Below are positions 3,432 through 48,245 of a stretch of 64,000 bases of DNA, piece after piece. Each line of letters begins with the position of its first letter. Position 1 is the stretch's first letter. The DNA lies in IMG/VR virus record IMGVR_UViG_3300045988_119876, positions 1-64,000 of that record; one strand, 5' to 3'. The translations under genes and the position numbers were made by a program. Below the pieces are notes generated by a model. It was not told where the DNA came from. It worked only from the letters and a program-made list of their open reading frames with translations, and did not search any database. This DNA comes from a virus.

Positions 3432-3683
3432 ATGGAGAAAAGAGACAAGAAGATGCCTTACGAGGTAGTCATACAGGAAAGAAAAAGAGTGGATTTATAC
3501 GGTAACGTAGTGTATTATATCTATTGGTTTGATAAATATGGGTACAATATCACAAAAGAATGGAAATTCTGGAGCAAGGGCCCGAAAAAGAAATACGATA
3601 GAGTTAATCGTTATCTAACGGATAGTTGGCTGAAGGAATACTGTGGGAATAACGATTTAAAGATAAGGAGAATAAAGGAATGA
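3432..3683 (+). CDS. hypothetical protein (83 aa)
   Basis: ORF track; strong RBS aaggagg 8 nt upstream. Confidence 0.55.
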   Translation: MEKRDKKMPYEVVIQERKRVDLYGNVVYYIYWFDKYGYNITKEWKFWSKGPKKKYDRVNRYLTDSWLKEYCGNNDLKIRRIKE

Positions 3684-4195
3684 AAAAGATAAAAGTAGAC
3701 AAAGTGATATTATATTACATGGATCGGGTAGACCCTGACGGGAACCTATACCGGTTCTATGTATATAAAGGCATGGCATCTGAAATAGAATACTTTTGCA
3801 CGGAAAAGGCAGGCAATATGACTATACCAATCGGAGAAGGAGAGTATGTCAAGATTGTACCAAAAGAAATAGAGAAAATACCAGTAAGGGGATATAGGAA
3901 GCTTACTGGAATATGGAATCGTGAAACATGTAACGGGAAGGGATGGTATAGGCTTTTTAATTATTTCAAATACAAGCCGACCCTATGTTATTTTAAAAAA
4001 GCGGGACATGGTGAAAATGGGAACACAAGATACGAAATATCATTATTTAACAACATTATAAATGTGACAAGATATTTTAATCTGTGGAGAATGAAGCCAG
4101 GAAAGTATGCTATGGTAACAAACGAGTGTGGCGCCTTGGATGTTATAAAAGAAAAATTTGACAACATAAATATAGTGGAATATGGATCTGAATGA
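3680..4195 (+). CDS. hypothetical protein (171 aa)
   Basis: ORF track; aaggag RBS; ATGA overlap. Confidence 0.55.
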   Translation: MKKIKVDKVILYYMDRVDPDGNLYRFYVYKGMASEIEYFCTEKAGNMTIPIGEGEYVKIVPKEIEKIPVRGYRKLTGIWNRETCNGKGWYRLFNYFKYKPTLCYFKKAGHGENGNTRYEISLFNNIINVTRYFNLWRMKPGKYAMVTNECGALDVIKEKFDNINIVEYGSE

Positions 4196-26020: not shown

Positions 26021-27116
26021 GATAGATATAAGAAGGATATTCAAAACCTCTAAACAGGTTATGGAAGAGGCGTATGAGAATATCTTAAAATACAGGCGGG
26101 GAGAGCTTATCCCCGCTAAAACCGGATACGATTATATTGATGAGGCTTTGCTTGGAGGTATTTTCCCTCAGCATGCTATTGCCATAGGAGCCCGCCCGTC
26201 TGTAGGTAAATCGTATGTGGCCCAAAAGATATTGGAAAATGTGATGAATCCGATGATCAACCCGCAAGCAGAAGATTATTTTCTTGTCAATTGCGAGTTC
26301 GAAATGAATCCTCAAGATCTTCTTCTTCGCAGAATGAGCCAGGATATGAAAAAACGGGCTCCTGAAATATTAAGAAGGCAAGATTCTAATACAGTAGAAG
26401 AGATGAGGATGTTTGAAATCCTTCAAGGTGAAATCAGAAATAATATAATATACATCGACGCTCCGTGTACGGTAAAAGAGTTTGAGGCGGCTGTATATCA
26501 TATAGCTACTAAGCATAAAGACAAACGTCTTATAATATTTAAAGTCGATCATATTGCTTTGATAAAAAGAATGGGATTGGATCCTAAGTCGGCTATAGAT
26601 GATTTGGTGGCGGTTATGAACGAGGCTAAATTAGTATATAAAAACATATTTTTCCTCATCATATCCCAATTCAACAGAGAGATAGAAGGAAGGATAAAAA
26701 GCCCTCAAGAGCAGCCTCCCCGTCTTTCTGACTTTTATCAGTCTGATACGCTGGGGCAACTATGTACGTTAATGATAGGTTTGCATAATCCTCGCAGATA
26801 CGGGCTGGACAAGTATATGATATTTGGGAAAGACTGGTATCAGACTCTTGACCGGTTTAAAACTGAAAACAAAACATCATTCAGGACAGCCGGACTGGTG
26901 TTTCATCATATACTGAAGGTAAGGCAAGTTAGTATGGAAGAGCTTACTAATACAATCCACCCAGAGATCCTGCCGGGGCATGGATGGATGTACGGGGAGG
27001 GAGGGACGAAGTTCGTGAACCCCAACCAGCCGCCGACGCCGCCTAAGCTCTATACTGTGGAAGACGTTACGGACAATCAGGAACAAGAGACAAAAGAAGA
27101 ACAGTCATTGTATTAA
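25989..27116 (+). CDS. DnaB-family replicative helicase (RecA-like core; Walker A GARPSVGKS, Walker B IIFKVDHIALI)
   Basis: motif pattern and size typical of the DnaB C-terminal domain. Confidence 0.7.
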   Translation: MTKMHEEIANRIDIRRIFKTSKQVMEEAYENILKYRRGELIPAKTGYDYIDEALLGGIFPQHAIAIGARPSVGKSYVAQKILENVMNPMINPQAEDYFLVNCEFEMNPQDLLLRRMSQDMKKRAPEILRRQDSNTVEEMRMFEILQGEIRNNIIYIDAPCTVKEFEAAVYHIATKHKDKRLIIFKVDHIALIKRMGLDPKSAIDDLVAVMNEAKLVYKNIFFLIISQFNREIEGRIKSPQEQPPRLSDFYQSDTLGQLCTLMIGLHNPRRYGLDKYMIFGKDWYQTLDRFKTENKTSFRTAGLVFHHILKVRQVSMEELTNTIHPEILPGHGWMYGEGGTKFVNPNQPPTPPKLYTVEDVTDNQEQETKEEQSLY

Positions 27117-27131
27117 AAAAAAATAAGAACC

Positions 27132-27734
27132 ATGAGACTAACAGTAGAAGAAAACGAATACCTGATAAGTAAGTTCCTTTTGGTTCTTACTGAGTTTGCA
27201 GGGGATGAAAGAGAGATGTTTTTAATCAACTCCATACATGATAAGGCGGTGGCGGATATGAATTATCGTCTTCCGTCTTTAATAAGCAGAGAACGTAAAA
27301 GACGAGTTATTGAGCTCCTTAAAGAAGGAACCAGAATAATCAAGGACTTTTCTGGCTATGCTGGCGATATGGGTATGATTAACGAATACGATCGTCTAAA
27401 GAAAGAAATAGGAACCGTCCAAGATCAGCTTGGCGACGTAGAAGGTCAACTTCGGGCAGCCGGCGAAGTAATCAAGAAAGAGCTTGATATGATTGCTGAC
27501 CGAATCAAAGAAGACCTCCTCGACCGAGAGCTGGCTAAAAGTAATGCCGAGGCTGAAAGAAAAGCCAAAGTGGATCCGAGATACGAAGTAGCTTTAGGTG
27601 ACTACAAGGAGATGCTGGAAGTGATTTTTACAACCAGAAACAAGTATTCTACGGTAGATTCTGTACATGATGATCTTCGTCAGTCGGTATCTACCGGTAG
27701 AAATTCGATTATCAAAGAAGGATACAATAGTTAA
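27132..27734 (+). CDS. hypothetical coiled-coil protein (200 aa)
   Basis: ORF track. Confidence 0.5.
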   Translation: MRLTVEENEYLISKFLLVLTEFAGDEREMFLINSIHDKAVADMNYRLPSLISRERKRRVIELLKEGTRIIKDFSGYAGDMGMINEYDRLKKEIGTVQDQLGDVEGQLRAAGEVIKKELDMIADRIKEDLLDRELAKSNAEAERKAKVDPRYEVALGDYKEMLEVIFTTRNKYSTVDSVHDDLRQSVSTGRNSIIKEGYNS

Positions 27735-27961: not shown

Positions 27962-28675
27962 ATGTACATCAATTTCAGACAACTTGCAGCATCAGACATG
28001 ACTCCTAATGATCTGGCTAATCTTCTTGCTATAAGACAGAAGGATACGGTTATGATCGAAGCCATGCTGGAAAAAGATGCTGGGAGGTATATAGAGCTTG
28101 GCCTGGTTGAGAAATTAAAATCAGGCGTGATGAGATTGACCAACAAAGGAACGTCTTTTGTGAATTATATAGAGACACCGGAAATGACAGACGAGGTTCT
28201 GGAAACGTTGAAGATTATGATAGGAATGTACGAATCGTATTCAAAAGACATAGGTGTCAGCAGAAAAGAAGCGGAATCCAGATTGTGTTGGTTTATGGGT
28301 AACACCTCATTCAAGAAAGAGGTCATACTTCAGGTAACGGAATCTTATATAGCAGAGTCAGGAGATTATACAATGAGCTTATGTAACTTCATATGGAAAC
28401 CGCCTTCTCAGGCTTTTTCAGTTCATATGAACCTTAAAAATTCAAAGCTCTTTGACTTAATAGCTGAAAAATTTAAGATCGCTACCGAGCCTTATTTGGA
28501 GTCTAAGAAGAATAAGGAAATGGATTGGTTGTTTGCCGTATCTAAATTGCCTACGCCGCCAGCTAAAGGCAATCCGGATTATTTGTTTACCGGAAGTTCT
28601 GAAACAGACAAAGAGCGATTGAAAAACATAAAAACGTATTTATTTAACAAAATTAGAAAGCAATGGAAAAAGTAG
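27962..28675 (+). CDS. hypothetical protein (237 aa), first gene of ACP/NfeD/flotillin cluster
   Basis: ORF track; stop overlaps ACP start. Confidence 0.5.
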   Translation: MYINFRQLAASDMTPNDLANLLAIRQKDTVMIEAMLEKDAGRYIELGLVEKLKSGVMRLTNKGTSFVNYIETPEMTDEVLETLKIMIGMYESYSKDIGVSRKEAESRLCWFMGNTSFKKEVILQVTESYIAESGDYTMSLCNFIWKPPSQAFSVHMNLKNSKLFDLIAEKFKIATEPYLESKKNKEMDWLFAVSKLPTPPAKGNPDYLFTGSSETDKERLKNIKTYLFNKIRKQWKK

Positions 28676-28914
28676 AAATCAGAAAGATTATAGAGGATAT
28701 AATTATTACTCAGTTTCTTAATTCAGAAATGGATATAGTTCACGAAGAAGATGTGACGTTTAAAGAACTTGGATTAGATTCTCTTGATCAAATTGAACTT
28801 GAAATGATGGTGGAACAAAAATTCAATATTGTTATTATTGATTATGATATGGAGACCATCAAAGATATGACTGATCTTGTTTACAAAATAATAACAGAAG
28901 GATATGGGAAGTGA
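28663..28914 (+). CDS. acyl carrier protein-like (83 aa)
   Basis: LGLDSLDQIELEMMVEQKFNI matches ACP phosphopantetheine-attachment motif LGxDSLDxVELVM; four-helix-sized acidic protein. Confidence 0.75.
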   Translation: MEKVEIRKIIEDIIITQFLNSEMDIVHEEDVTFKELGLDSLDQIELEMMVEQKFNIVIIDYDMETIKDMTDLVYKIITEGYGK

Positions 28915-29398
28915 TATAATTTTATGCATGGCTTTAATAGCGTCATTTGCTTTTGTTATACAGTTTTTGTTGTCGATATTAGGATCTGATCTGGATACGG
29001 ATATTGACATTGACAGTGCTTCTGATTTAAGCATGTCTTTGTCGGACATCATATCATTCAAGGGCATAACACATTTCATTCTTGGATATAGCTGGACTAC
29101 TTACTTTTCGGGTTCCCATTTAGTAGGGGTTGTGATAGGGTCGTTTTTCTTTATCGTTTTGTTTTACGTATATAAGTTACTTCTTAAGTTAAAGCAAGAA
29201 ATGGTGTACGAATGTCCGGAAGATTTAAACGGAAGAGAAGTTGAGATAGTATTTAGATCAGGGAAGAATCATTATATGGTAAATATTTCTAAAAATGGAA
29301 GACAAGAGCAAATGAGAGTAAGATGCTTGTCTGGAAAAACCTACAAAAACGGCGACAAGGCGAATATAAAATATGAAGAAGGAGAATTAAGTATCTAA
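28904..29398 (+). CDS. NfeD-like membrane protein (short YuaF/YqiJ type; two TM helices plus C-terminal beta-barrel)
   Basis: N-terminal hydrophobic helices, C-terminal GREVEIVFRSGKNHYMVNI...KYEEGELSI; sits immediately upstream of an SPFH gene as in bacterial NfeD-flotillin operons. Confidence 0.7.
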   Translation: MGSDIILCMALIASFAFVIQFLLSILGSDLDTDIDIDSASDLSMSLSDIISFKGITHFILGYSWTTYFSGSHLVGVVIGSFFFIVLFYVYKLLLKLKQEMVYECPEDLNGREVEIVFRSGKNHYMVNISKNGRQEQMRVRCLSGKTYKNGDKANIKYEEGELSI

Positions 29399-29429
29399 TT
29401 TTTTTATCAACAATTAAATTTTAAAAGTT

Positions 29430-31130
29430 ATGACAACAATCATGTACGTGTCAGCTATCTTAGCTGTAGTGATTATTTTGACAATCATCGGAGTCTTATC
29501 AAGGTATCGTAGATGTAAGCCTAATCAGGTCTTGGTCGTTTACGGTAAGACAGGTGGGGAAAAGAAGTCGGCAAAATTATATCATGGTGGAGCGGCATTT
29601 GTCTTGCCTATTATTCAAAGCTATGATGTTTTGTCAATGGAGCCTATGCAAATAGATTGCAAGCTTACCGGTGCTTTGTCATCTCAGAATATTAGAGTAG
29701 ATGTACCTACGACCATTACAGTAGCTATCAGTACAAATCCCGAAATCATGCAAAATGCGGCAGAAAGACTTTTGGGGATGAATACCGAATCTACTGAAAA
29801 TCTTATTACGGACATCGTTTACGGTCAGATGCGTTTGATTATTGCTGAAATGACAATCGAAAAACTTAATTCTGACAGGGATGAGTTTTTGGATAAGGCG
29901 AGAAAGAACATTGATAACGAGCTTAACAAGTTAGGTCTTTACCTCCTGAACATCAACATCAGTGACATCAGAGACGAAGCCGGTTATATTATGAACCTTG
30001 GTAAGGAAGCTGAAAGTAGGGCTCTGAACGAGGCACAGGCTAATATCGAAGAACAGGAGAAGCTGGGTGCTATTAAAATTGCTGTACAGCAGAAGGAAAA
30101 AGAAACGGCTGTGGCTAATACCAAAAAAGAACAAGAGATTCAAATTGCTTGTACTGAAAAAGAAAAGGAGACAATAGTAGCTGAAACGAAGAAAGAAAAA
30201 GAAATAGCTTTAGCTTTAACCGATAAAGAGAAACAGATCGGTGTAGCTCAAGCAGATAGAGACAGGGCTGCGGTTATCGCAAAAACTTTAACCGACAAGG
30301 AATCGGCGATCGTAAGATCTAAGGCAGAACTTGAAGTAAATAAAGCCGAGGCTGAAAGAATGGAAGAAGTCGGAAAGAATAAGGCTGAAGCTGACAAGGA
30401 AGCAGCTATAGCAATACAAGACTCTGAAGCTCAGATTAAGAAGGCTGAGGCTGAGAAAAATGCGTCTATAGGATACAACAATGCCCAGAAGGAGGTTGCT
30501 GTATCAGTATCAGAACTACAGATCATCAAAGCTCAATCAGAGAAGAAGGCCGGAGAAGAAAAAGTTAAATCGGAAGCGGCTGTAAAAACAGCAAAAGAGC
30601 TTGCCGACAAAGAAGTGGAAGAAGCTAAGGCTAAGAAAGTTCAGGCTGCGCTTAAGGCTGAAAAGATTGTGCCGGCTGAAACCCAGAAGGAAGAGGCTAT
30701 CTTGCAAGCTGATGCTGAGGCAGAGAAGATCAAACGCCGGGCTGAGGCAGAAGCAGCAGCACATTTGGCAAAAGCTGAGGCGGAGGCAAAAGCTATTCAA
30801 ATGAAGCTGGAGGCAGAAGCCGAAGGTAAGAAAAAATCGTTGATGGCAGAAGCCGACGGATTTAAGGCTATGGTGGAAGCAGCAGAATCCAATCCTCAGA
30901 TCGCCATCCAGTACAAGATGGTTAATCAGTGGAAAGAAATTGCCGGAGAACAGGTTAAGGCATTTGAGCACATTAACCTCGGAAATATCACGGTATTTGA
31001 CGGCGGTCAGAACAGTACCGGTAATTTCCTTAACAATGTTGTCAAGACCGTCGCTCCGGCATTGGGAGTCATTGATCAGCTTCCGATTGCAGATACTTTA
31101 AAGAAGTTAAAAGGAGATGACAAAAAATAA
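29430..31130 (+). CDS. flotillin-like SPFH/band-7 protein (566 aa)
   Basis: N-terminal TM, SPFH core, long Ala/Glu-rich coiled-coil (AEAEK repeats) as in FloT/YqiK. Confidence 0.8.
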   Translation: MTTIMYVSAILAVVIILTIIGVLSRYRRCKPNQVLVVYGKTGGEKKSAKLYHGGAAFVLPIIQSYDVLSMEPMQIDCKLTGALSSQNIRVDVPTTITVAISTNPEIMQNAAERLLGMNTESTENLITDIVYGQMRLIIAEMTIEKLNSDRDEFLDKARKNIDNELNKLGLYLLNINISDIRDEAGYIMNLGKEAESRALNEAQANIEEQEKLGAIKIAVQQKEKETAVANTKKEQEIQIACTEKEKETIVAETKKEKEIALALTDKEKQIGVAQADRDRAAVIAKTLTDKESAIVRSKAELEVNKAEAERMEEVGKNKAEADKEAAIAIQDSEAQIKKAEAEKNASIGYNNAQKEVAVSVSELQIIKAQSEKKAGEEKVKSEAAVKTAKELADKEVEEAKAKKVQAALKAEKIVPAETQKEEAILQADAEAEKIKRRAEAEAAAHLAKAEAEAKAIQMKLEAEAEGKKKSLMAEADGFKAMVEAAESNPQIAIQYKMVNQWKEIAGEQVKAFEHINLGNITVFDGGQNSTGNFLNNVVKTVAPALGVIDQLPIADTLKKLKGDDKK

Positions 31131-31137
31131 ATACAAT

Positions 31138-31159
31138 GGCCCAAGGTTACACTTGGGCC
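31138..31159 (+). other. perfect 8-bp hairpin ggcccaag-gttaca-cttgggcc just after the flotillin stop
   Basis: seen in sequence; no T-run follows, so not a canonical terminator. Confidence 0.35.
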
Positions 31160-31293
31160 TAATTGAAGAAGCAAAAGCAGCATTCATAGATTTCCTGCCG
31201 GCAGGGACAGTGATTTTAAGTGCTTTACTAATTACGATATTTTTAACATGGATTTTGGACAAGATTTAGAACCAGAAGAACTGACCAAGCATT

Positions 31294-31653
31294 ATGATCA
31301 GTATTATGGAATTGATTTTGAAACAGAAGAAGAGGAGGATGAAGAGTATGACTGACGAGGAATTTGTATTGGATAATAAGAAAAGGGTTGTTGTAAGAAA
31401 AAGAATATCTTATTTAAGCAAAGGGGATAAAGTGTGGATTGTGTCTTCCGACGGGTATCTGCTACACACGGACGTGGTTAGAGCCGACCGCGGCCGATCT
31501 TATGTGGATATAGACGGTATCCTGTATTGGAAACGAGGATTGGATGGCAAGCATCGTAATCGTAATAACTACATGCAGTTTGCCATGACACCAGAAGACG
31601 GTAAGAAGTATGTCGTATATTACCCAGAAGGATTTAAAGACAATGACTTATGA
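31294..31653 (+). CDS. hypothetical protein (likely ATG at 31339 or 31348)
   Basis: ORF track; ATGA overlap with next gene. Confidence 0.5.
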   Translation: MISIMELILKQKKRRMKSMTDEEFVLDNKKRVVVRKRISYLSKGDKVWIVSSDGYLLHTDVVRADRGRSYVDIDGILYWKRGLDGKHRNRNNYMQFAMTPEDGKKYVVYYPEGFKDNDL

Positions 31654-35990: not shown

Positions 35991-36536
35991 ATGGACGATA
36001 TTATTATTAAAAAAGGAACCGATGTAGTTCTTAACAGAGATCTTAATGTTCGTGAAGTAACAGTAGCCAGAAAAGGACTTAAGGTTGCATGTGAAAAGGA
36101 TATCAAAAAAGGAGATACAGAAGTTACACTGTCATACGAAGGTCGTATGGAGTTCGATGTACCAGTTGAATATATATCTAAGAGTGATAATACTCTTTTT
36201 GAAAATAAAGAAAGTAAGTCGGTAAAGAATGACATCATTGACGATAAACTACGATGGGATTTGCTTCCAATGGAAGAGATTGAGGATATTGTAAGAGTCT
36301 ATCATGCTGGTGCAAAGAAGTACGGACCCAATAAATGGCAGAACCTTGACAACGGGTTTGAACGGTATCGTGCTGCGGCTGCCAGACACCTAATGGAATA
36401 CATGAAAGGGGAAAGAATAGACTCAGATACAGGAGCTTTTCATCTTGCACAATGTGCATGGAATTGTATAGCTATGCTGTGGTATGATAAGCACGGGAAA
36501 GGATTAATACCATTAAATAAGGAGGAAAAGAAATGA
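35991..36536 (+). CDS. DUF5664 / dATP-dGTP-diphosphohydrolase-N-terminal-like domain protein (181 aa)
   Basis: KLRWDLLP...AGAKKYGPNKW...AAARHL...DSDTGAFHLAQCAWN resembles the conserved core of that phage family. Confidence 0.45.
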   Translation: MDDIIIKKGTDVVLNRDLNVREVTVARKGLKVACEKDIKKGDTEVTLSYEGRMEFDVPVEYISKSDNTLFENKESKSVKNDIIDDKLRWDLLPMEEIEDIVRVYHAGAKKYGPNKWQNLDNGFERYRAAAARHLMEYMKGERIDSDTGAFHLAQCAWNCIAMLWYDKHGKGLIPLNKEEKK

Positions 36537-36845: not shown

Positions 36846-38012
36846 ATGAGAGTGTTAAGTTTATTTGACGGAATGTCATGTGGTCAAATAGCGCTAAAAG
36901 AAATAGGGATCACACCTGAAGTATATTATGCATCAGAAATAGATAAGTTTGCTATTAAACAAACGCAATTAAATTTCCCTAATACGATACAAGTAGGAGA
37001 TGTAAGGGATTTGAATGTAGAAGATCTTGGACACATAGATCTTATTTTAGCCGGCAGCCCATGTACGGATATGTCCTTTTCTGGAAAAAGAAAAGGGTTG
37101 TCTACCGTAGAAGGAATAGAAATCAAATCACTTAATGAGTATCTTGAACTAAAAAAACAAGGATTTGAGTTTGCCGGTCAGTCTTACTTATTCTGGGAGT
37201 TTATTCGTATTTTGAATGATGTAAGAAAAACTAATCCTGATGTATTATTTCTTCTTGAGAACGTTAAGATGGGAAAGAAATGGGAGCCAGTATTTGATGA
37301 TGCTATAGGGTGTAAAGGCAATCATATTAATTCAGCACTTGTTTCCGCTCAAACCAGGAAACGTATTTATTGGACTAATATTCAAGGCGGCATTATCCCT
37401 CAACCTAAAGACGAAGGTTTGACTATAAGTGATATAGCGGAATATGAAGTAGATGAAAAATATTACTTATCTGAAAAAGTTTTAAACAATTTAGCTTTTC
37501 ACTTGAAAATAAATCACGACAGGGGAAATCATTATGGAGCTAATATTAAAACAAAAGATGAGAAATCCATAAAGGGTAAATACATGTACGATCTTATTTG
37601 TGTAGCAATGAGAGGCAGGAATCCAGAAAAACCTACATGTGGAGAATCTGGTCTTAAAACAGTTCAGATGATTGAATTTAAAAACGATGGAAAAACCAAT
37701 TGTCTCACAACAGTTCAGAAAGATAATCTTATTTTCCAAATACCAAGAGGATTTAACAAAGGTGGATTTCATGAAGATAAGGCTCCAACATTATCTTGTA
37801 ATTCATATGATAGAAACAATTTTATCATACAGAGAACATTACATGGCGATTTCAGAATAAGAAGATTAACCCCTACAGAGTGCTCCAGGTTACAGACTGT
37901 ACCAGATTGGTATAAATGGGAATGCAGCGAAACCCAACAGTACAAGATGTTGGGAAACGGGTGGACTATTAAAGTGATTGAACATATACTTAAAAGAATA
38001 AAAGAATCATGA
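36846..38012 (+). CDS. DNA (cytosine-5)-methyltransferase (388 aa from ATG 36846)
   Basis: motif I LSLFDGMSCG, motif IV GSPCTDMS, motif VI LLENV, C-terminal QTVPDWY...LGNGWT. Confidence 0.85.
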   Translation: MRVLSLFDGMSCGQIALKEIGITPEVYYASEIDKFAIKQTQLNFPNTIQVGDVRDLNVEDLGHIDLILAGSPCTDMSFSGKRKGLSTVEGIEIKSLNEYLELKKQGFEFAGQSYLFWEFIRILNDVRKTNPDVLFLLENVKMGKKWEPVFDDAIGCKGNHINSALVSAQTRKRIYWTNIQGGIIPQPKDEGLTISDIAEYEVDEKYYLSEKVLNNLAFHLKINHDRGNHYGANIKTKDEKSIKGKYMYDLICVAMRGRNPEKPTCGESGLKTVQMIEFKNDGKTNCLTTVQKDNLIFQIPRGFNKGGFHEDKAPTLSCNSYDRNNFIIQRTLHGDFRIRRLTPTECSRLQTVPDWYKWECSETQQYKMLGNGWTIKVIEHILKRIKES

Positions 38013-41822: not shown

Positions 41823-44800
41823 CTATTTGTAACTAACATCATCGTCTCCTTCCGAATCAGGAGTGGCGCCGATGAAGAACATCATTGACTTGTTGTTCGT
41901 CTGCTGCCACCAATTATAGGCGCGCGCTACGTCTTCCGGCGTCTTGATATTATACCATTGTTTGATAAACGTCTGTTTGGCGAGTTGCCTAAATAACTTA
42001 GACTCTCCTTTGTATGTACCGGACGTCACCTTATCAAGTGAATAATTCCTAAGATCGGTAAGATCCTTAAGTTTCCGTCCCATAACAAACGGGTCGTTAA
42101 TGATATCTACCACATTAAGCTCCATAATAAACGGCATCTGTGAAGCTATTTCATTTATGGTTCTGAATCCAACGTAAGATCCAAATTGAGTAAGCCAACT
42201 TTCTTCGTTTTCATCATCATCACGCCATCCGGCAAGAAGCATGGATACGGCTTGCATGATAAGGAACGTGCCTGCATAGACACTGAGGCGTTTGAGATTA
42301 GTTTTTTCTACCTCATTCATATTGTCTTTATTTTCGTTCCAGGCATCTATGATGTTTTTCATACCAGACTCGGAAGCCAGGCTAAATGTTTTGGCTATCA
42401 TATTCTTTAACGTAATTGACAACCCTTCCTCTTCTTGCATTGTTTGGAAATTGAAGCCACGTCTTTTCCACAGACGTTGAGCCGCCAGCACCAACCATCC
42501 TCGGTGGGCGGTCATGAACCTGGCTATCCAGTTGCGCGATGCGGCAGTTCGGTTTTCTTCATTCAAAGATCCGTTACATATCTGCGACAAGCTACGGACT
42601 TGATTCCTGGTTATAGCCATCTGGGTTTCAACTTCCTCAACAGTAACACCCGATCCTGGCTTTACAACCACCTTCCCATCCACGACGTCTACCATACTCC
42701 ATAAAGTACGATCTTTTAATGCATTCCATTCTCTTTTTATGGTACTCTGTTCTTTATTGCGTTCTTTTTCCATCTTGAAATCTTGGAACGTGTAGAACCG
42801 ACCTTTGTAATAACGAACATTGTCCATAGTAGCAATCATAACCTGCGGATCAAGAGGGTAGTTCAGGATTTCCATAAAAGCATACATAGGTGAACGCATT
42901 AAGGTCCTGGCCACTCTATTGTATCCGGCACCATACATACGATTTCGGATATTGAATATCCCCATTCTCTCACCTATGACATATAATTTGCTTTTCCTAT
43001 CTATGTCTCCGGTTTCTGCTATACAAGATGGAGCAAGGCGTGAAAATTCAGCCGATGCGTATTTAAGGGAATCTTTACTTATATACTGTCCTACGGCAGA
43101 TTCCATGATGAGGTTGATATGACCTGTTAAGGCGCCGGTAGCTGCCACAAACGGGGACAGTGCCAAGTTCATGACCGACATAAATCTTTCAACAGCCATC
43201 ATAATTCTTGTAAGGTCTACCGTATATCCTCCGATGTTCACCGTAAGTTTTTTGGTGTTCATCCTAATGCCATAATAATGATCGTTGAAGAAGTCCCTGA
43301 ACATCTGATATGCTTGGGTTGCTTCAGCCTTTTTACCACCTTCAAATTGTTTATTCAGTAACATCTGCTCCAGTCCTTGAGCGAGCTCTATAGACTTCTG
43401 CTTTTCGTTGTATAACGATGACTGCATCATAAGCATCGAATAAGAGTAGCCAAAATCGTGAGATACATCATCTTGGTTCTCCAATTCATATATGTAGTAT
43501 TTAGGTATAGACCTAAGTCTGTCTTCCGGATCATACACTTCTCCTTGCCTGGTTTTACCGTATAGAGAATCGTCTACTCTGTCCAGGCACAGATCTGATA
43601 CAAAATTACGAACCGTATTTTTGAAGTTAATACCCAATCCTTCCATACGTTCTATGTCTTGTTTTGATATCTGTGGAATAGCATACAGGTTCGGGCTCTG
43701 CTCTTTGTATAGATCAAGGGATTGTCTTTTTATTTCCTTGAGTTTTTGAATCATATTCCACTGCTCTACGTTTTTAGTAGCAACTTCATTACCGTCAGCA
43801 TCATACTTGATACCAAAGTCATTGAAATACGATTCATCACGATATAGGCTTTTCTTAGGCATTCGATGACCATACCCATGATCTTTTACATAATCAGGAT
43901 TACGGCCGCTATTTTCGGCTTCAGATTCAGCCACCCATGCCCTTGCAGGGTCGAAAGACAGGTACGATATGTCCATGCCATAATCTTGGGTGGATGTACC
44001 GTTTTGTACGTCCTTAACCATCTGCGCCACATCTATCTCACCTCGACCTATTTTGTCGATCATAGCCGCATATCCGGTAGGCGCCATGCGTTTATAGTAC
44101 GAAAAGACCTGGCTCCTGGCAAATTCATTAACAATAGCATTAGCTTCTTCTATGCCCTCTTCTCTTGTATTATTTAAAAACAAGCTGGCCATCTTAGCAT
44201 TAACAGCATTCCTAAAATCTCTACCGTCTAATTCTTTGCTTATACCAAGCTTTTCTGACAGGTAGTTGGTTTCAGATACGGTAAACAAATATCGGTTATC
44301 AGCAGCCTTAAACAGCTTATCCCTTAAAGCCTGAATCCTTTTTGCTTTCTTCGCCGTAGTATGACGTTGTACGAACTTCCATTCCACTTCCTTGGAGTCA
44401 GCAAGAGCATTTAAATAAGACTGATTTACTTCGTTTTCAGCCTTACTGCTTTTAGTAAGGTACTTATCAATATCTTCAAGACCCACCATCTTAGCATAAT
44501 CTATCAAAATAGCGTAATCGGCTTCAATAGCTTCAGATGCGGCCCTAAAAGCATCTCTTTCAGATGAGGTAAATGTCGCTTCGTTAATCTCTCCGATATC
44601 AGCCACATCGCGATTGTTTCCGATTATTTCCTTGATAATAGCCTTATTTTTTTCTATATCTTTCACAATAGAATCCACGTCAGTCGCATCTCTATCGCTT
44701 GTCGTAGAACTAATGATATCATGCGCCATTTTGAGATACGAAGCCTTGTTGTTTGATTCGGTGCGCGCTGACTGTTCCGATTCTATATCATTCCAAAACC

Positions 44801-47800
44801 GATCGTTGAATGACAGGTGACCTCCCAACATAAGTGTCTTCAGCGCAGCTTCTCCTCCTGACTCGTTCTGAATCGTTCTCAATTTTTGCAAAAACGATTC
44901 TGATACGACATTAGTGACATTATTTGATTCCTTTCTCCAAACTTCATTTATAGCTTGTATTTCTTTGGCCATCTTAAGTTGGTCGCCGGTTTTTTCCACT
45001 CTCCTGGTTCCTACATATATGTATTCTGAAGCTGCTTCTTTACGTTGTTTACGAAGCAGTCCTTCTTCTTCGTAATTGCTGCTTTTAAAATAGGCAACTT
45101 CATCAAAATTACCACCGCTATCAATAAAAGGCTGCCTCAATATCCGCTTCTGCCGAGAAAGAGCATTAAGGTATTCTTTGGTTGTTTGAGAAACCGGATG
45201 CCCTAATTCTTCTTCAGCCTTTTTGTATATGGATTCCATTCTTGTGGCATAACTTTCGCTAAATTCCAGTTCCGAATTTTCAGCATCCCACTTTTCCATC
45301 TGCTCTGTATAGATCTTTTCCTGCTCGATGGTAAAAATATCGGTATTAACTCTATCAGACGATGGTTTGAATTTAGCGTTTTCAGTAACCGTATTTCCAT
45401 CCTTGTCAACTACTTCTCTTTTAAATACGTAATTACGGTTATTGTCAACCACATCACCAATTTCTTCTTCTGATATCTCTATGTTCATGGCAGTCGCAAA
45501 CGCTCGCATCTGCGCCAGCTTCTTATTACGATCGTATTTAGCCATATCAAGGGCACTACGAAGGTAATTAGAAGTTTTGCCGTCTACTTTCTGAAGCAGT
45601 TTTTCAAATTCAGATTTGTTAAAACCATGCTTTTTCGCATATGCCAGGAAATCGGATATGGCGGGCTGGGCATTCACCATCGCATTGTAATTGTCTTTGG
45701 CAATCATAGCTCCAAGAGCGTTATTGAACGGGCTGGAAGAATGCTCTAATATACCGAACCACCTACTTATCCAAGAAACATCGTGTTGAACCTTATCAAA
45801 GAACTCTTTTACTCTCTTTACCTTATCTGCCGGCACATGAAGTTCGTTCATTAACTTGTCAAGCAACGTACTTTCATCAAGATCTTGTACTGATTTAATA
45901 TCAGACTGAATACCATTGATGTCGGCAATGACGGTATTGATCCTATTTGTATAATCCTGCTTTTCATGTTCATCAAATTCGGTACTTCTGTTACGGATAT
46001 ATCCTCGAAGATCGTTCATGATCGGAAGAACCTGATTGTTGATAATATCTACGTTCTTTCGATCATTGGTATTGAAGTGAAGCTTACCGTCTTTGGTATC
46101 ACCATGAAGGATGGTGTTTACCACATTACTTAAGTATCTGACCTGAGCTTCGGCTGTGGAGATCATGCTGTTCATGGCAGCCGCCATCTCATTCTTGTCT
46201 ATTTCGGTCTCTACCTTATTTATCTTATCTTCTATGGTCTTAAGCTGAGCAAGAGTCATAGACGTAGTTACAGCCCTATCAGAGCTTATCTGACGTAAGT
46301 CTCTTAAGGTTTTTCTTAGTGATCTGATCTTAGACTCAAGAAACTTGTTCTTGTTCATAGAAGAAAGAGAGTATAATGTAAAATCATTATCCTTTAACAG
46401 AGAGGTGTCAAATCCTTTATCTATGTCGGTAATAGCAAGATCGCGAATGTTTTTAATAACATTATTCAAATCTTGTCTTTGGGTAGATAAAGCTGATTTA
46501 AGCCAGCTTACTATTCCAGAGAGAAGCTGCCGGACGCGCCCCAGGAAGGAGGTGGGCTCTACCGGCGCCTGTGCTGTGCCGGTCTGCATCTCCCTGGCAA
46601 GGATCTTTCCAAGAATTTCTCTCCTAACAGCATTATCAAGCTCGGATCCTTCATATACCTTACCGTATGTATTATAATACTGACCTGCATACTGGTTCCA
46701 CTCTTCCGTACCTTCTACATCTTGCAGAACAGCCTCAACAGCATTCTGATCTCTGTATGCCTCTACAAGGAAGTGGGATGTTTCTTCTACTAAATCAGAT
46801 AAAGTAGCATCTTCACCAACTGCTATTACGTTATTGGCAATATCCGCCAATGCCTTAGCAGAAGGTTCATGCCCGTATTTGGTTTGGTACTTCTCTATAT
46901 AATCGGTCATACCTATGACACTAACGCCAAGAGTTTTCAGTATCTCGACAATAGAATTTCGTTGATCACGTTCCTCTTGGCTATAATCTGATACGATCTT
47001 AGCTTTAGTATCAGCGTAAAGATCGTTGTCTTCTAATATGAATGAAACTACAAGCGCATCAAAGTGATCGTATTTAGCATCCAATTCATTGTATCTTCCA
47101 GACTTAAGATCGCTCTTTATCTGCTCCTTGCTAACTCTTTCTGTTCCTCCGGTGGCGAGCCTCATAGTTACCTTACTATTATCCAACGAGCTTATGGTTA
47201 TCATACCTTGGTCGTTCATGGAAACATCTGAACCAAAATGATTACGGAGCTCGGTGTAGGATAAGGCTGAATTGAAAAGTCTAATTTGTCCTGTATGACC
47301 TTCTCCTGTAAGATAATAGCTTCTTGTTTCAGGATCGAATATCTTAGATCCGGACAAAAGACCTTTCTTTATAAGGTAGTTAATTATACCACCTTTTGTT
47401 GATAAAGAAGTAGAAGCAGAAGCGGTCATGACCGGTATAAAAGATTTGGGATTATTAAGAACATACTTTCCAGCCTTGTAAGTAATGTCTGCCACGCCAT
47501 CCACGGTAGATTCTTGAACGGTGCCTGATAAGAATCCTATTCTAATATCATTTCCGCCAGAGCGAAGAGCTTCTCCGTAATCTTCAAATAATTGACTACG
47601 ATCGTTCATGAAAAACAAACGAGGCTCTCCGGTCTGATACGTTACACCCACAGGATTAGAATCTGTCTGTGGTAGCTCTTCTGGGCTAAATATCTTAAGA
47701 CCGTCTTTTATAACCATATAATTAACACCCTTATCCTGTACCATAGATACGGGAGTGAAGTCCGAAGATATAGCATCTTGTAGATACTGCCCTGCGTCTA

Positions 47801-48245
47801 TTCCCGGTCCTTCCGGTACGGAAATACTTGACGGGACCATAGCATCTACCAACATAATATTATCACCCAGATCTTGGCTGTAAAATCCAAAGCCCGATTC
47901 TCGGATTTCATAAGGTGCATCTGATTTTGACACAAGAACAGGGTTACTCATCTTAGAAGCCTTATCCAGCACCCTTTCCCTGTAGGCTTCTGGGATAAGA
48001 TCGATGTTGGATTTTACCTTATTATAAGCCTGTTTGTTGATAGGCACTCTCTTTCTCCAGTCGCCAAAAGCCTTTAAGAACTTGTTGGAAAATACGGTTT
48101 TAAAAACAGTAGTAGCCCGTTCCCTGTTCTCCATAAGGGGAATAGATGCTATTTTATCAAACAACATAGACCTGTCCCCTGATCTGGTAGAGACAGAAAC
48201 AACTTTCTTTTTATTATCTCTTTTAATAATACACGTTGATGTCAT
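41823..48245 (-). CDS. giant hypothetical protein (2140 aa), probable virion or ejection protein
   Basis: uninterrupted 6.4 kb ORF; location in leftward structural block; no catalytic motif recognised. Confidence 0.7.
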   Translation of the reverse strand: MTSTCIIKRDNKKKVVSVSTRSGDRSMLFDKIASIPLMENRERATTVFKTVFSNKFLKAFGDWRKRVPINKQAYNKVKSNIDLIPEAYRERVLDKASKMSNPVLVSKSDAPYEIRESGFGFYSQDLGDNIMLVDAMVPSSISVPEGPGIDAGQYLQDAISSDFTPVSMVQDKGVNYMVIKDGLKIFSPEELPQTDSNPVGVTYQTGEPRLFFMNDRSQLFEDYGEALRSGGNDIRIGFLSGTVQESTVDGVADITYKAGKYVLNNPKSFIPVMTASASTSLSTKGGIINYLIKKGLLSGSKIFDPETRSYYLTGEGHTGQIRLFNSALSYTELRNHFGSDVSMNDQGMITISSLDNSKVTMRLATGGTERVSKEQIKSDLKSGRYNELDAKYDHFDALVVSFILEDNDLYADTKAKIVSDYSQEERDQRNSIVEILKTLGVSVIGMTDYIEKYQTKYGHEPSAKALADIANNVIAVGEDATLSDLVEETSHFLVEAYRDQNAVEAVLQDVEGTEEWNQYAGQYYNTYGKVYEGSELDNAVRREILGKILAREMQTGTAQAPVEPTSFLGRVRQLLSGIVSWLKSALSTQRQDLNNVIKNIRDLAITDIDKGFDTSLLKDNDFTLYSLSSMNKNKFLESKIRSLRKTLRDLRQISSDRAVTTSMTLAQLKTIEDKINKVETEIDKNEMAAAMNSMISTAEAQVRYLSNVVNTILHGDTKDGKLHFNTNDRKNVDIINNQVLPIMNDLRGYIRNRSTEFDEHEKQDYTNRINTVIADINGIQSDIKSVQDLDESTLLDKLMNELHVPADKVKRVKEFFDKVQHDVSWISRWFGILEHSSSPFNNALGAMIAKDNYNAMVNAQPAISDFLAYAKKHGFNKSEFEKLLQKVDGKTSNYLRSALDMAKYDRNKKLAQMRAFATAMNIEISEEEIGDVVDNNRNYVFKREVVDKDGNTVTENAKFKPSSDRVNTDIFTIEQEKIYTEQMEKWDAENSELEFSESYATRMESIYKKAEEELGHPVSQTTKEYLNALSRQKRILRQPFIDSGGNFDEVAYFKSSNYEEEGLLRKQRKEAASEYIYVGTRRVEKTGDQLKMAKEIQAINEVWRKESNNVTNVVSESFLQKLRTIQNESGGEAALKTLMLGGHLSFNDRFWNDIESEQSARTESNNKASYLKMAHDIISSTTSDRDATDVDSIVKDIEKNKAIIKEIIGNNRDVADIGEINEATFTSSERDAFRAASEAIEADYAILIDYAKMVGLEDIDKYLTKSSKAENEVNQSYLNALADSKEVEWKFVQRHTTAKKAKRIQALRDKLFKAADNRYLFTVSETNYLSEKLGISKELDGRDFRNAVNAKMASLFLNNTREEGIEEANAIVNEFARSQVFSYYKRMAPTGYAAMIDKIGRGEIDVAQMVKDVQNGTSTQDYGMDISYLSFDPARAWVAESEAENSGRNPDYVKDHGYGHRMPKKSLYRDESYFNDFGIKYDADGNEVATKNVEQWNMIQKLKEIKRQSLDLYKEQSPNLYAIPQISKQDIERMEGLGINFKNTVRNFVSDLCLDRVDDSLYGKTRQGEVYDPEDRLRSIPKYYIYELENQDDVSHDFGYSYSMLMMQSSLYNEKQKSIELAQGLEQMLLNKQFEGGKKAEATQAYQMFRDFFNDHYYGIRMNTKKLTVNIGGYTVDLTRIMMAVERFMSVMNLALSPFVAATGALTGHINLIMESAVGQYISKDSLKYASAEFSRLAPSCIAETGDIDRKSKLYVIGERMGIFNIRNRMYGAGYNRVARTLMRSPMYAFMEILNYPLDPQVMIATMDNVRYYKGRFYTFQDFKMEKERNKEQSTIKREWNALKDRTLWSMVDVVDGKVVVKPGSGVTVEEVETQMAITRNQVRSLSQICNGSLNEENRTAASRNWIARFMTAHRGWLVLAAQRLWKRRGFNFQTMQEEEGLSITLKNMIAKTFSLASESGMKNIIDAWNENKDNMNEVEKTNLKRLSVYAGTFLIMQAVSMLLAGWRDDDENEESWLTQFGSYVGFRTINEIASQMPFIMELNVVDIINDPFVMGRKLKDLTDLRNYSLDKVTSGTYKGESKLFRQLAKQTFIKQWYNIKTPEDVARAYNWWQQTNNKSMMFFIGATPDSEGDDDVSYK

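Follow-up and report, generated by a model that had tools for sequence, protein, structure and literature searches.

What a bacteriophage gains from a flotillin operon, and whether an acyl carrier protein gene lying directly before it belongs to the same system, are questions raised by a locus in the IMG/VR virus record IMGVR_UViG_3300045988_119876, of which positions 1 to 64,000 were analysed (this 64,000-nucleotide stretch is referred to as the window). Three co-directional open reading frames (ORFs) on the + strand encode an acyl carrier protein (ACP; 28663..28914, 83 aa), a middle membrane protein termed MID (28904..29398, 164 aa) and a flotillin (29430..31130, 566 aa). ACP and MID overlap by 11 nt, and a gap of 31 nt separates MID from the flotillin. 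An earlier reading of the DNA letters, hereafter the original prediction, had described the three ORFs as one phage-borne module, and all of them were recovered on the + strand at these coordinates. The explanation favoured here, to which we assign a probability of about 0.6, is that MID and the flotillin constitute an NfeD-like OB-fold/flotillin operon captured by an epsilon crAss-like phage from a Bacteroidales host chromosome and acting as a conditional membrane helper, the ACP being a separate gene.

The flotillin matches Pfam Band_7 over aa 30-211 (91.4 bits against a cut-off of 23.6; 9.4e-26) and Pfam Flot over aa 450-559 (38 bits, cut-off 27; 2.1e-9). A hydrophobic N-terminal anchor (aa 1-28) precedes the SPFH/Band_7 domain, and a 250-residue A/E/K-rich region (residues 200-450, 62% A+E+K+Q) forms a predicted coiled coil leading to the C-terminal Flot domain; the membrane anchor and coiled coil that had been proposed from the letters are both present. 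A full-length alignment with E. coli YqiK shows 24% identity (E 7e-21), and the protein scores 144.6 bits against the B. subtilis FloT equivalog (NCBIfam NF058507), below the cut-off of 700. By its sequence, it is classed as a flotillin and not as a FloT orthologue. Next to the anchor, a juxtamembrane motif SRY[RK][RK]C (aa 24-29, 29499-29516) is invariant, cysteine included, in 160 of 160 flotillins compared (80 bacterial and 80 from phages). Eukaryotic stomatin and flotillin are palmitoylated at similarly placed cysteines.

MID comprises three transmembrane (TM) helices, an acidic loop carrying a DTDxDxD motif and a C-terminal OB-fold (aa 105-164, 29216..29395), the latter being the predicted flotillin-binding part if FloA-NfeD (PMC11222466) is taken as the model. 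Searches of Pfam, NCBIfam, PHROGs and PADLOC gave no match for the window protein, and no Pfam or NCBIfam model covers its family, bacterial members included: the bacterial homologues do not match Pfam NfeD at E <= 1, and a single member out of 80 matches PF01957, at 6e-5. An exhaustive HMMER search returned 414 relatives, typically 160-180 aa long, among which the SFKGxxHF motif is nearly invariant. The AlphaFold model, built from an 80-sequence alignment, reached a predicted local distance difference test (pLDDT) score of 88.8 and displays the three TM helices and a C-terminal beta-barrel of OB-fold type; the acidic loop, which joins TM1 to TM2 and contains the conserved DTDxDxD, is disordered. 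This corresponds to the NfeD architecture, in which an N-terminal membrane anchor is followed by a C-terminal OB-fold beta-barrel of five or six strands. Profile-profile comparison with hhalign aligned the MID family with the YbbJ (NfeD) family over the linker and OB domain (E 8.3e-5, probability 61%), and weakly with YqiJ (E 0.041, probability 1%); a profile search against YuaF (2k14) gave a weak match over the whole domain (E 0.044). A viral relative, 35% identical, carries the UniProt name 'NfeD-like C-terminal domain-containing protein', and a PDB sequence search with MID alone or with a four-sequence profile returned nothing relevant. Taken together, the architecture and fold, the weak similarity between profiles and the conserved order of the genes lend weak to moderate weight to describing MID as NfeD-like, short of a demonstrated NfeD member. 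What survives of the NfeD-type protein in the original prediction is therefore a membrane-anchored OB-fold partner, and what does not is a significant NfeD profile match.

The origin of the pair emerges from its distribution. Bacterial genomes, one per species, were scanned with an alignment of phage flotillins, and the best 80 matching loci all belonged to Bacteroidales (Bacteroides, Parabacteroides, Phocaeicola, Prevotella and relatives), with chromosomal flotillins 62-67% identical to that of the window. A MID-family gene lies about 20 nt upstream of the flotillin in 79 of these 80 loci (hidden Markov model E 1e-50 to 1e-63; chromosomal homologues at about 3470-3968 of loci L162-L241), and the lone locus without it is cut by a contig end. 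The pair is also found in more than 200 IMG/VR contigs from uncultured gut phages, representing at least 15 flotillin clusters. When 80 divergent IMG/VR loci were inspected (35-45% identical, on contigs of 9-400 kb that mostly exceed 90 kb), they fell into 15 flotillin clusters with unrelated neighbour genes, and MID preceded the flotillin within 4-40 nt in every one. No ACP was detected in the 160 non-epsilon loci, 80 bacterial and 80 from other phages, so that the search for co-occurrence in phage databases, suggested for all three genes, recovered, outside the epsilon lineages, the MID-flotillin pair without the ACP. The pairing of MID and flotillin in chromosomes and phages alike, with the ACP absent, identifies the two genes, on sequence grounds, as a host operon captured by phages. 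As identity to any sampled host is only 62-67%, the capture would be old. The pair has the hallmarks of host-derived auxiliary genes of the moron type, being carried by a real phage, having its closest homologues in the host group and varying in presence.

In a neighbour-joining (NJ) tree, the window flotillin and the copy from a sister epsilon lineage group with the bacterial clade (70 of 100 bootstraps), while the other phage flotillins form a separate, long-branched clade (69 of 100). These two phage placements suggest at least two captures of the pair. One IMG/VR contig of 25 kb (L142, IMGVR_UViG_3300045988_141550) carries a flotillin nested within the Bacteroides chromosomal clade of the tree; the contig could represent a prophage or bacterial DNA wrongly classed as viral, or the capture could be very recent. 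Around the pair in five loci from other large phages (L083, L118, L144, L136, L141), spurious ORF translations resembling tRNA genes were observed, which suggests that the cassette sits there in tRNA-rich or non-coding regions.

The window itself derives from an epsilon crAss-like phage, and the region is not host chromosome. CrAssE-Sib (OR575929), a complete human gut phage genome of 151 kb, matches the region at 98.1% identity over 99% of 3.8 kb. The trio is flanked by a DnaB-like helicase on one side and a PD-(D/E)XK exonuclease on the other, and the neighbouring genes also include a primase/helicase, a further helicase and a C5-methylase; the locus therefore lies in the early/replication block of a real phage, as the original prediction had it. 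The three genes carry the GenBank labels acyl carrier protein, transmembrane protein and flotillin family protein in OR575929, and go undiscussed in the paper describing CrAssE-Sib.

How the phage population treats these genes was assessed by comparing 80 near-identical IMG/VR genomes drawn from many samples, their contigs reaching 158 kb. The ratio of non-synonymous to synonymous substitution rates (dN/dS) among same-lineage genomes was 0.059 for MID and 0.035 for the flotillin, compared with 0.02-0.08 for the flanking replication genes, and the pair is under strong purifying selection when present. The flotillin is deleted in 14 of the 80 genomes and frameshifted in four more (L037, L070, L071, L080), the pair being intact in about three quarters. 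The deletions have at least four distinct endpoints. The commonest, 29401..31242, is found in 11 of the 80 genomes and has ATTTTT(A) microhomology at its junction; independent ones span 29508-31305 (L003), 29566-31151 (L047) and 30119-31135 (L077). Entries in protein databases additionally include in-frame MID::flotillin chimeras of several kinds, as well as a single ACP::MID fusion. The flotillin is thus an optional accessory that is recurrently lost in nature.

The ACP is recognised by Pfam PP-binding (PF00550; 27.7 bits, above the curated cut-off of 20.8) and by phrog_5934 'acyl carrier protein' (5.8e-11), so that the identities proposed for the ACP and the flotillin both stand above the Pfam curated thresholds. 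Its LGLDSLD is in register with LGADSLD of E. coli AcpP, where DSL marks the start of helix II and the attachment serine, and identity to AcpP is 41% over 46 aa. It falls below every NCBIfam AcpP equivalog cut-off (TIGR00517, PRK00982), with best scores of 34.5-37.2 bits against 70-106. No phosphopantetheinyl transferase (PPTase) or acyl-handling enzyme is annotated in the approximately 135 kb inspected of the 151-kb OR575929, nor was one found among the 28 window ORFs scanned. On this basis, the window ACP is regarded as an orphan carrier protein with a putative carrier function. Among deposited phages, relatives occur only in the two Yersinia jumbo phages fHe-Yen9-03 and -04.

Within the lineage, the ACP evolves with a dN/dS of 0.42. 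A search returned 957 distinct clusters, from which 150 distinct variants were compared position by position. The predicted phosphopantetheine-attachment serine, Ser40 (codon TCT, 28780..28782), is a replacement hot spot in natural populations: it is exchanged for Pro, Phe or Tyr in 20 of the 150 variants, on several haplotype backgrounds, through three point changes of TCT to CCT, TTT and TAT (S40P/F/Y), and alleles without it are backed by about 79 contigs. The most variable positions are 40-48 (28780-28806), comprising the attachment serine and helix II (41-48), neither of which is conserved among ACP relatives, and two IMG/VR alleles contain internal stop codons. Mutagenesis by a diversity-generating retroelement (DGR) was considered as the source of this variation and rejected, as adenines are not specifically affected and a putative tail-fibre gene at another place in the genome contains the annotated target (variable repeat, VR) of the DGR. 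That the hottest variable sites are the attachment serine, changed in three independent ways at its codon, and helix II, which binds partners, would fit a conflict with a host factor. In this reading the ACP would be a non-conventional carrier, either an apo-ACP mimic hitting host lipid or envelope enzymes or a host-sensing target, working with the flotillin-NfeD pair in remodelling the Bacteroides membrane. We hold this to be improbable; if it were true, the ACP and the captured pair would amount to a phage toolkit for remodelling that membrane.

The original prediction had treated the ACP as fused into the flotillin operon and had envisaged an acylated cargo. According to this explanation, the ACP, NfeD-like protein and flotillin would be one three-gene module, in which a (phospho)pantetheinylated or acylated ACP brings cargo to, or modifies, a membrane platform built by the phage, the invariant juxtamembrane cysteine of the flotillin being one candidate target. 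The 11-nt overlap of the ACP stop with the MID start is in its favour, as is the same gene order, with overlapping frames, in the sister epsilon lineage, where identity to the window is 76-84% for core genes, 83% for the flotillin, 61% for MID and 38% for the ACP; overlapping ORFs are, however, the norm throughout this gene block. The ACP accompanies the pair only in these two epsilon lineages, whereas 79 bacterial and 80 other-phage pairs lack it and yet possess the same invariant cysteine. An initial test of coupling appeared striking, with the flotillin intact in 4 of 13 genomes whose ACP had lost the serine and in 18 of 18 that retained it (p = 3.5e-5). After the addition of three more alleles and the IMG/VR data, broken flotillins numbered 12 of 31 among Ser-less genomes and 18 of 96 among the others (p = 0.03), a weak excess that vanished on removal of one lineage (p = 0.40); a coupling of serine loss to flotillin loss is consequently not claimed. 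Moreover, the flotillin is intact in 19 genomes whose ACP is Ser-less, and is therefore independent of holo-ACP. Neither a PPTase nor a ligase or acyltransferase is annotated in the inspected parts of the reference genome, and selection acts in opposite ways on the ACP (0.42) and on the pair (0.035-0.06). The one-module explanation is accordingly given little credence, and the acylated cargo is not upheld. From the comparisons made, the ACP appears as a separate, fast-evolving neighbour present since before the two epsilon lineages split and standing outside the ancestral operon, and its role is probably independent of the flotillin.

Three further explanations concern the pair itself. The main rival sees MID and the flotillin as conflict genes, whose scaffold would block superinfecting phages or blunt membrane-targeting defence or abortive-infection effectors. 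Such a role would explain the presence/absence polymorphism of the pair, which, with its many independent losses, is typical of arms-race accessory genes, and it agrees with the location in the early gene block and with the cassette-like placement in varied contexts in other phages. On the other hand, none of the ACP, MID and flotillin matches a PADLOC defence model at E <= 0.1, the literature search found nothing tying flotillin to exclusion, and purifying selection and closeness to the host operon are unlike what is seen in fast-evolving conflict proteins; this rival is considered unlikely, if less so than the three-gene module. That the genes are a functionless passenger, recently transduced host DNA in decay, could be argued from the frequent deletions and frameshifts of the flotillin and from the Ser40 substitutions and two nonsense alleles of the ACP. 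This is very improbable, given that dN/dS of the pair is as low as that of replication genes, that about three quarters of genomes are intact, that the sister lineage has retained a flotillin 83% identical, that the pair is kept in at least 15 other phage clusters and that the distance from any sampled host indicates an old capture. The clearly Bacteroidales type of both proteins might even point to host chromosome or a chimeric assembly, but the genes recur in this arrangement, between the DnaB-like helicase and the exonuclease, in the complete 151-kb phage and in 80 IMG/VR contigs, and identity to any host copy is just 62-67%; the chance that this explanation holds is negligible.

Several observations weigh against the favoured explanation of a captured operon with a separate ACP. 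The bacterial sample was picked by likeness to the phage flotillin, which biases the tree, and bootstrap support in that tree is moderate only. The window MID has no match to Pfam NfeD (PF01957) at E <= 0.1, and in structure searches generic OB-folds (S17, eIF1A) outrank NfeD domains, so that the resemblance to NfeD may reflect either homology or convergence. The synteny of ACP, MID and flotillin preserved in two lineages counts on the same side, as does the pooled p value of 0.03, which leaves some probability to a functional link between the ACP and the flotillin. Finally, every mechanistic step outlined below is argued by analogy from Firmicute systems, whose identity to the phage proteins does not exceed about 24%.

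The proposed mechanism for the captured operon takes its model from Staphylococcus aureus, where the OB-like domain of NfeD binds the coiled coil of FloA and stabilises its oligomers, and where, under stress, the FloA-NfeD complex acts on unfolded membrane proteins as a stabiliser that needs no ATP (PMC11222466). MID would be an inner-membrane protein whose OB domain faces the cytoplasm. In the predicted topology, positively charged stretches follow both the last helix of MID and the anchor of the flotillin, which assigns the soluble part of each protein to the cytoplasmic side. As in FloA-NfeD and YuaF-FloT, MID would bind the flotillin coiled coil and promote flotillin oligomerisation, and the resulting scaffold could stabilise membrane proteins and membrane fluidity without consuming energy. 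Read most economically, the phage would add an extra flotillin scaffold and might in this way preserve the function of the host's envelope and membrane machinery while infection proceeds. The pair would then be a conditionally useful, non-essential auxiliary gene set, and a benefit of this conditional kind would explain the frequent natural loss of the flotillin.

Other features of the neighbourhood complete the description of the locus. A small ORF on the + strand (31117..31269; 50 aa, the C-terminal half hydrophobic) shares 14 nt with the end of the flotillin gene and is truncated by the commonest flotillin deletion. An ORF of similar size is called at its position in the sister lineage, and no homologue was found beside bacterial or other-phage flotillins; it is lineage-specific, and its membership of the module is uncertain. 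Just 3' of the flotillin stop, within this small ORF, a G+C-rich hairpin with an 8-bp stem (GGCCCAAG...CTTGGGCC) occupies 31138-31159, and one endpoint of the L047 natural deletion falls inside it. A scan for promoters and terminators yielded nothing above chance, the consensus used being that of sigma-70, which is unsuited to Bacteroides. Two insertions recur among near-identical loci, one of 354-361 bp at about 31305, right before a 119-aa ORF (14 of 80 loci), and one of 1289 bp at 27085-27133, between the DnaB-like helicase and the next gene (five loci). Further downstream, the gene at 35991-36536 encodes an N-terminal dATP/dGTP diphosphohydrolase domain (PF18909, 4.6e-26), and two genes beyond it lies that of a C5 cytosine methyltransferase (36846-38012), a combination that hints at nucleotide-pool or DNA-modification functions. 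The sign of the GC skew flips at around 40 kb (about 40400), where gene orientation turns from + to -: the + strand before this point carries early/replication genes, and the - strand after it very large structural proteins, among them a 2140-aa ORF at 41823-48245.

Part of what is described here was already known, namely SPFH ORFs in phages, a flotillin annotation in a Vibrio phage and the GenBank labels of the trio. The literature search found no paper on a flotillin-partner operon in crAss-like or other phages, nor any on the combination of ACP, NfeD and flotillin, as the original prediction had supposed. Its verdict that the locus is very unusual was overstated: a flotillin is indeed present in only 11 of 50,697 deposited phage records, but the pair occurs in the more than 200 IMG/VR contigs mentioned above and the trio is annotated in GenBank. 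What is new is that the pair originated as a host operon and recurs across many gut phages, that the partner belongs to an unnamed family, that loss is polymorphic and that the ACP evolves in an odd manner. Since abundant human gut phages, both epsilon crAss-like ones and those of at least 15 further clusters of large uncultured phages, possess a complete host-type operon, phages of Bacteroidales may repeatedly need to control the membrane of their host. The MID family, with its 414 relatives, is near-universal beside Bacteroidales flotillins and still without a Pfam or NCBIfam model, and following the natural knock-outs (deletions, frameshifts and Ser-less alleles) through metagenomic time series could show when the module pays.

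Phage-borne SPFH proteins have been known from annotation only, in the T4-like phages 44RR, Aeh1 and RB43, where SPFH/Band-7 ORFs have been listed since 2006 (PMC1524935), and in Vibrio phage KIT04 ('flotillin family protein'); all are distant from the window flotillin, with at most 29% identity over the SPFH domain. The ACP resembles the phage ACPs of phrog_5934 (Yersinia fHe-Yen9-03/-04) in being a small acidic PP-binding protein with a DSL motif, and differs from them in being an orphan in the genome parts inspected and hypervariable at the attachment site and helix II.

Operons of the SPFH2 group with YuaF/YqiJ-type partners, such as yuaF-floT of B. subtilis and yqiJ-yqiK of E. coli (PMC2636767), share with the phage pair, as does nfeD-floA of S. 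aureus (PMC11222466), a partner gene directly upstream that encodes TM segments and a C-terminal OB-fold, and a flotillin with an anchor, an SPFH domain and an A/E-rich coiled coil. By analogy, the pair probably works as these systems do. Similarity to yuaF-floT and yqiJ-yqiK is nevertheless low (YqiK 24%, YqiJ E 0.04, YuaF E 0.044) and, unlike the NfeD partners of the three systems, the window MID fails Pfam NfeD and has the conserved DTDxDxD loop. Much closer is a chromosomal operon of Bacteroidales (B. xylanisolvens XB1A, L189; B. thetaiotaomicron, L181; Phocaeicola vulgatus, L217), made up of an uncharacterised 165-aa membrane protein and a flotillin: the two genes are the same, in the same order and with a gap of 20-31 nt, the flotillins are 62-67% and the partners about 39-41% identical, and SRY[RK][RK]C is shared. 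The phage copy is set apart by its place among replication genes, by the ACP before it and the small TM ORF after it, and by its polymorphic presence. The locus thus extends the SPFH-NfeD theme and the auxiliary-gene concept to these phages and is no new kind of system.

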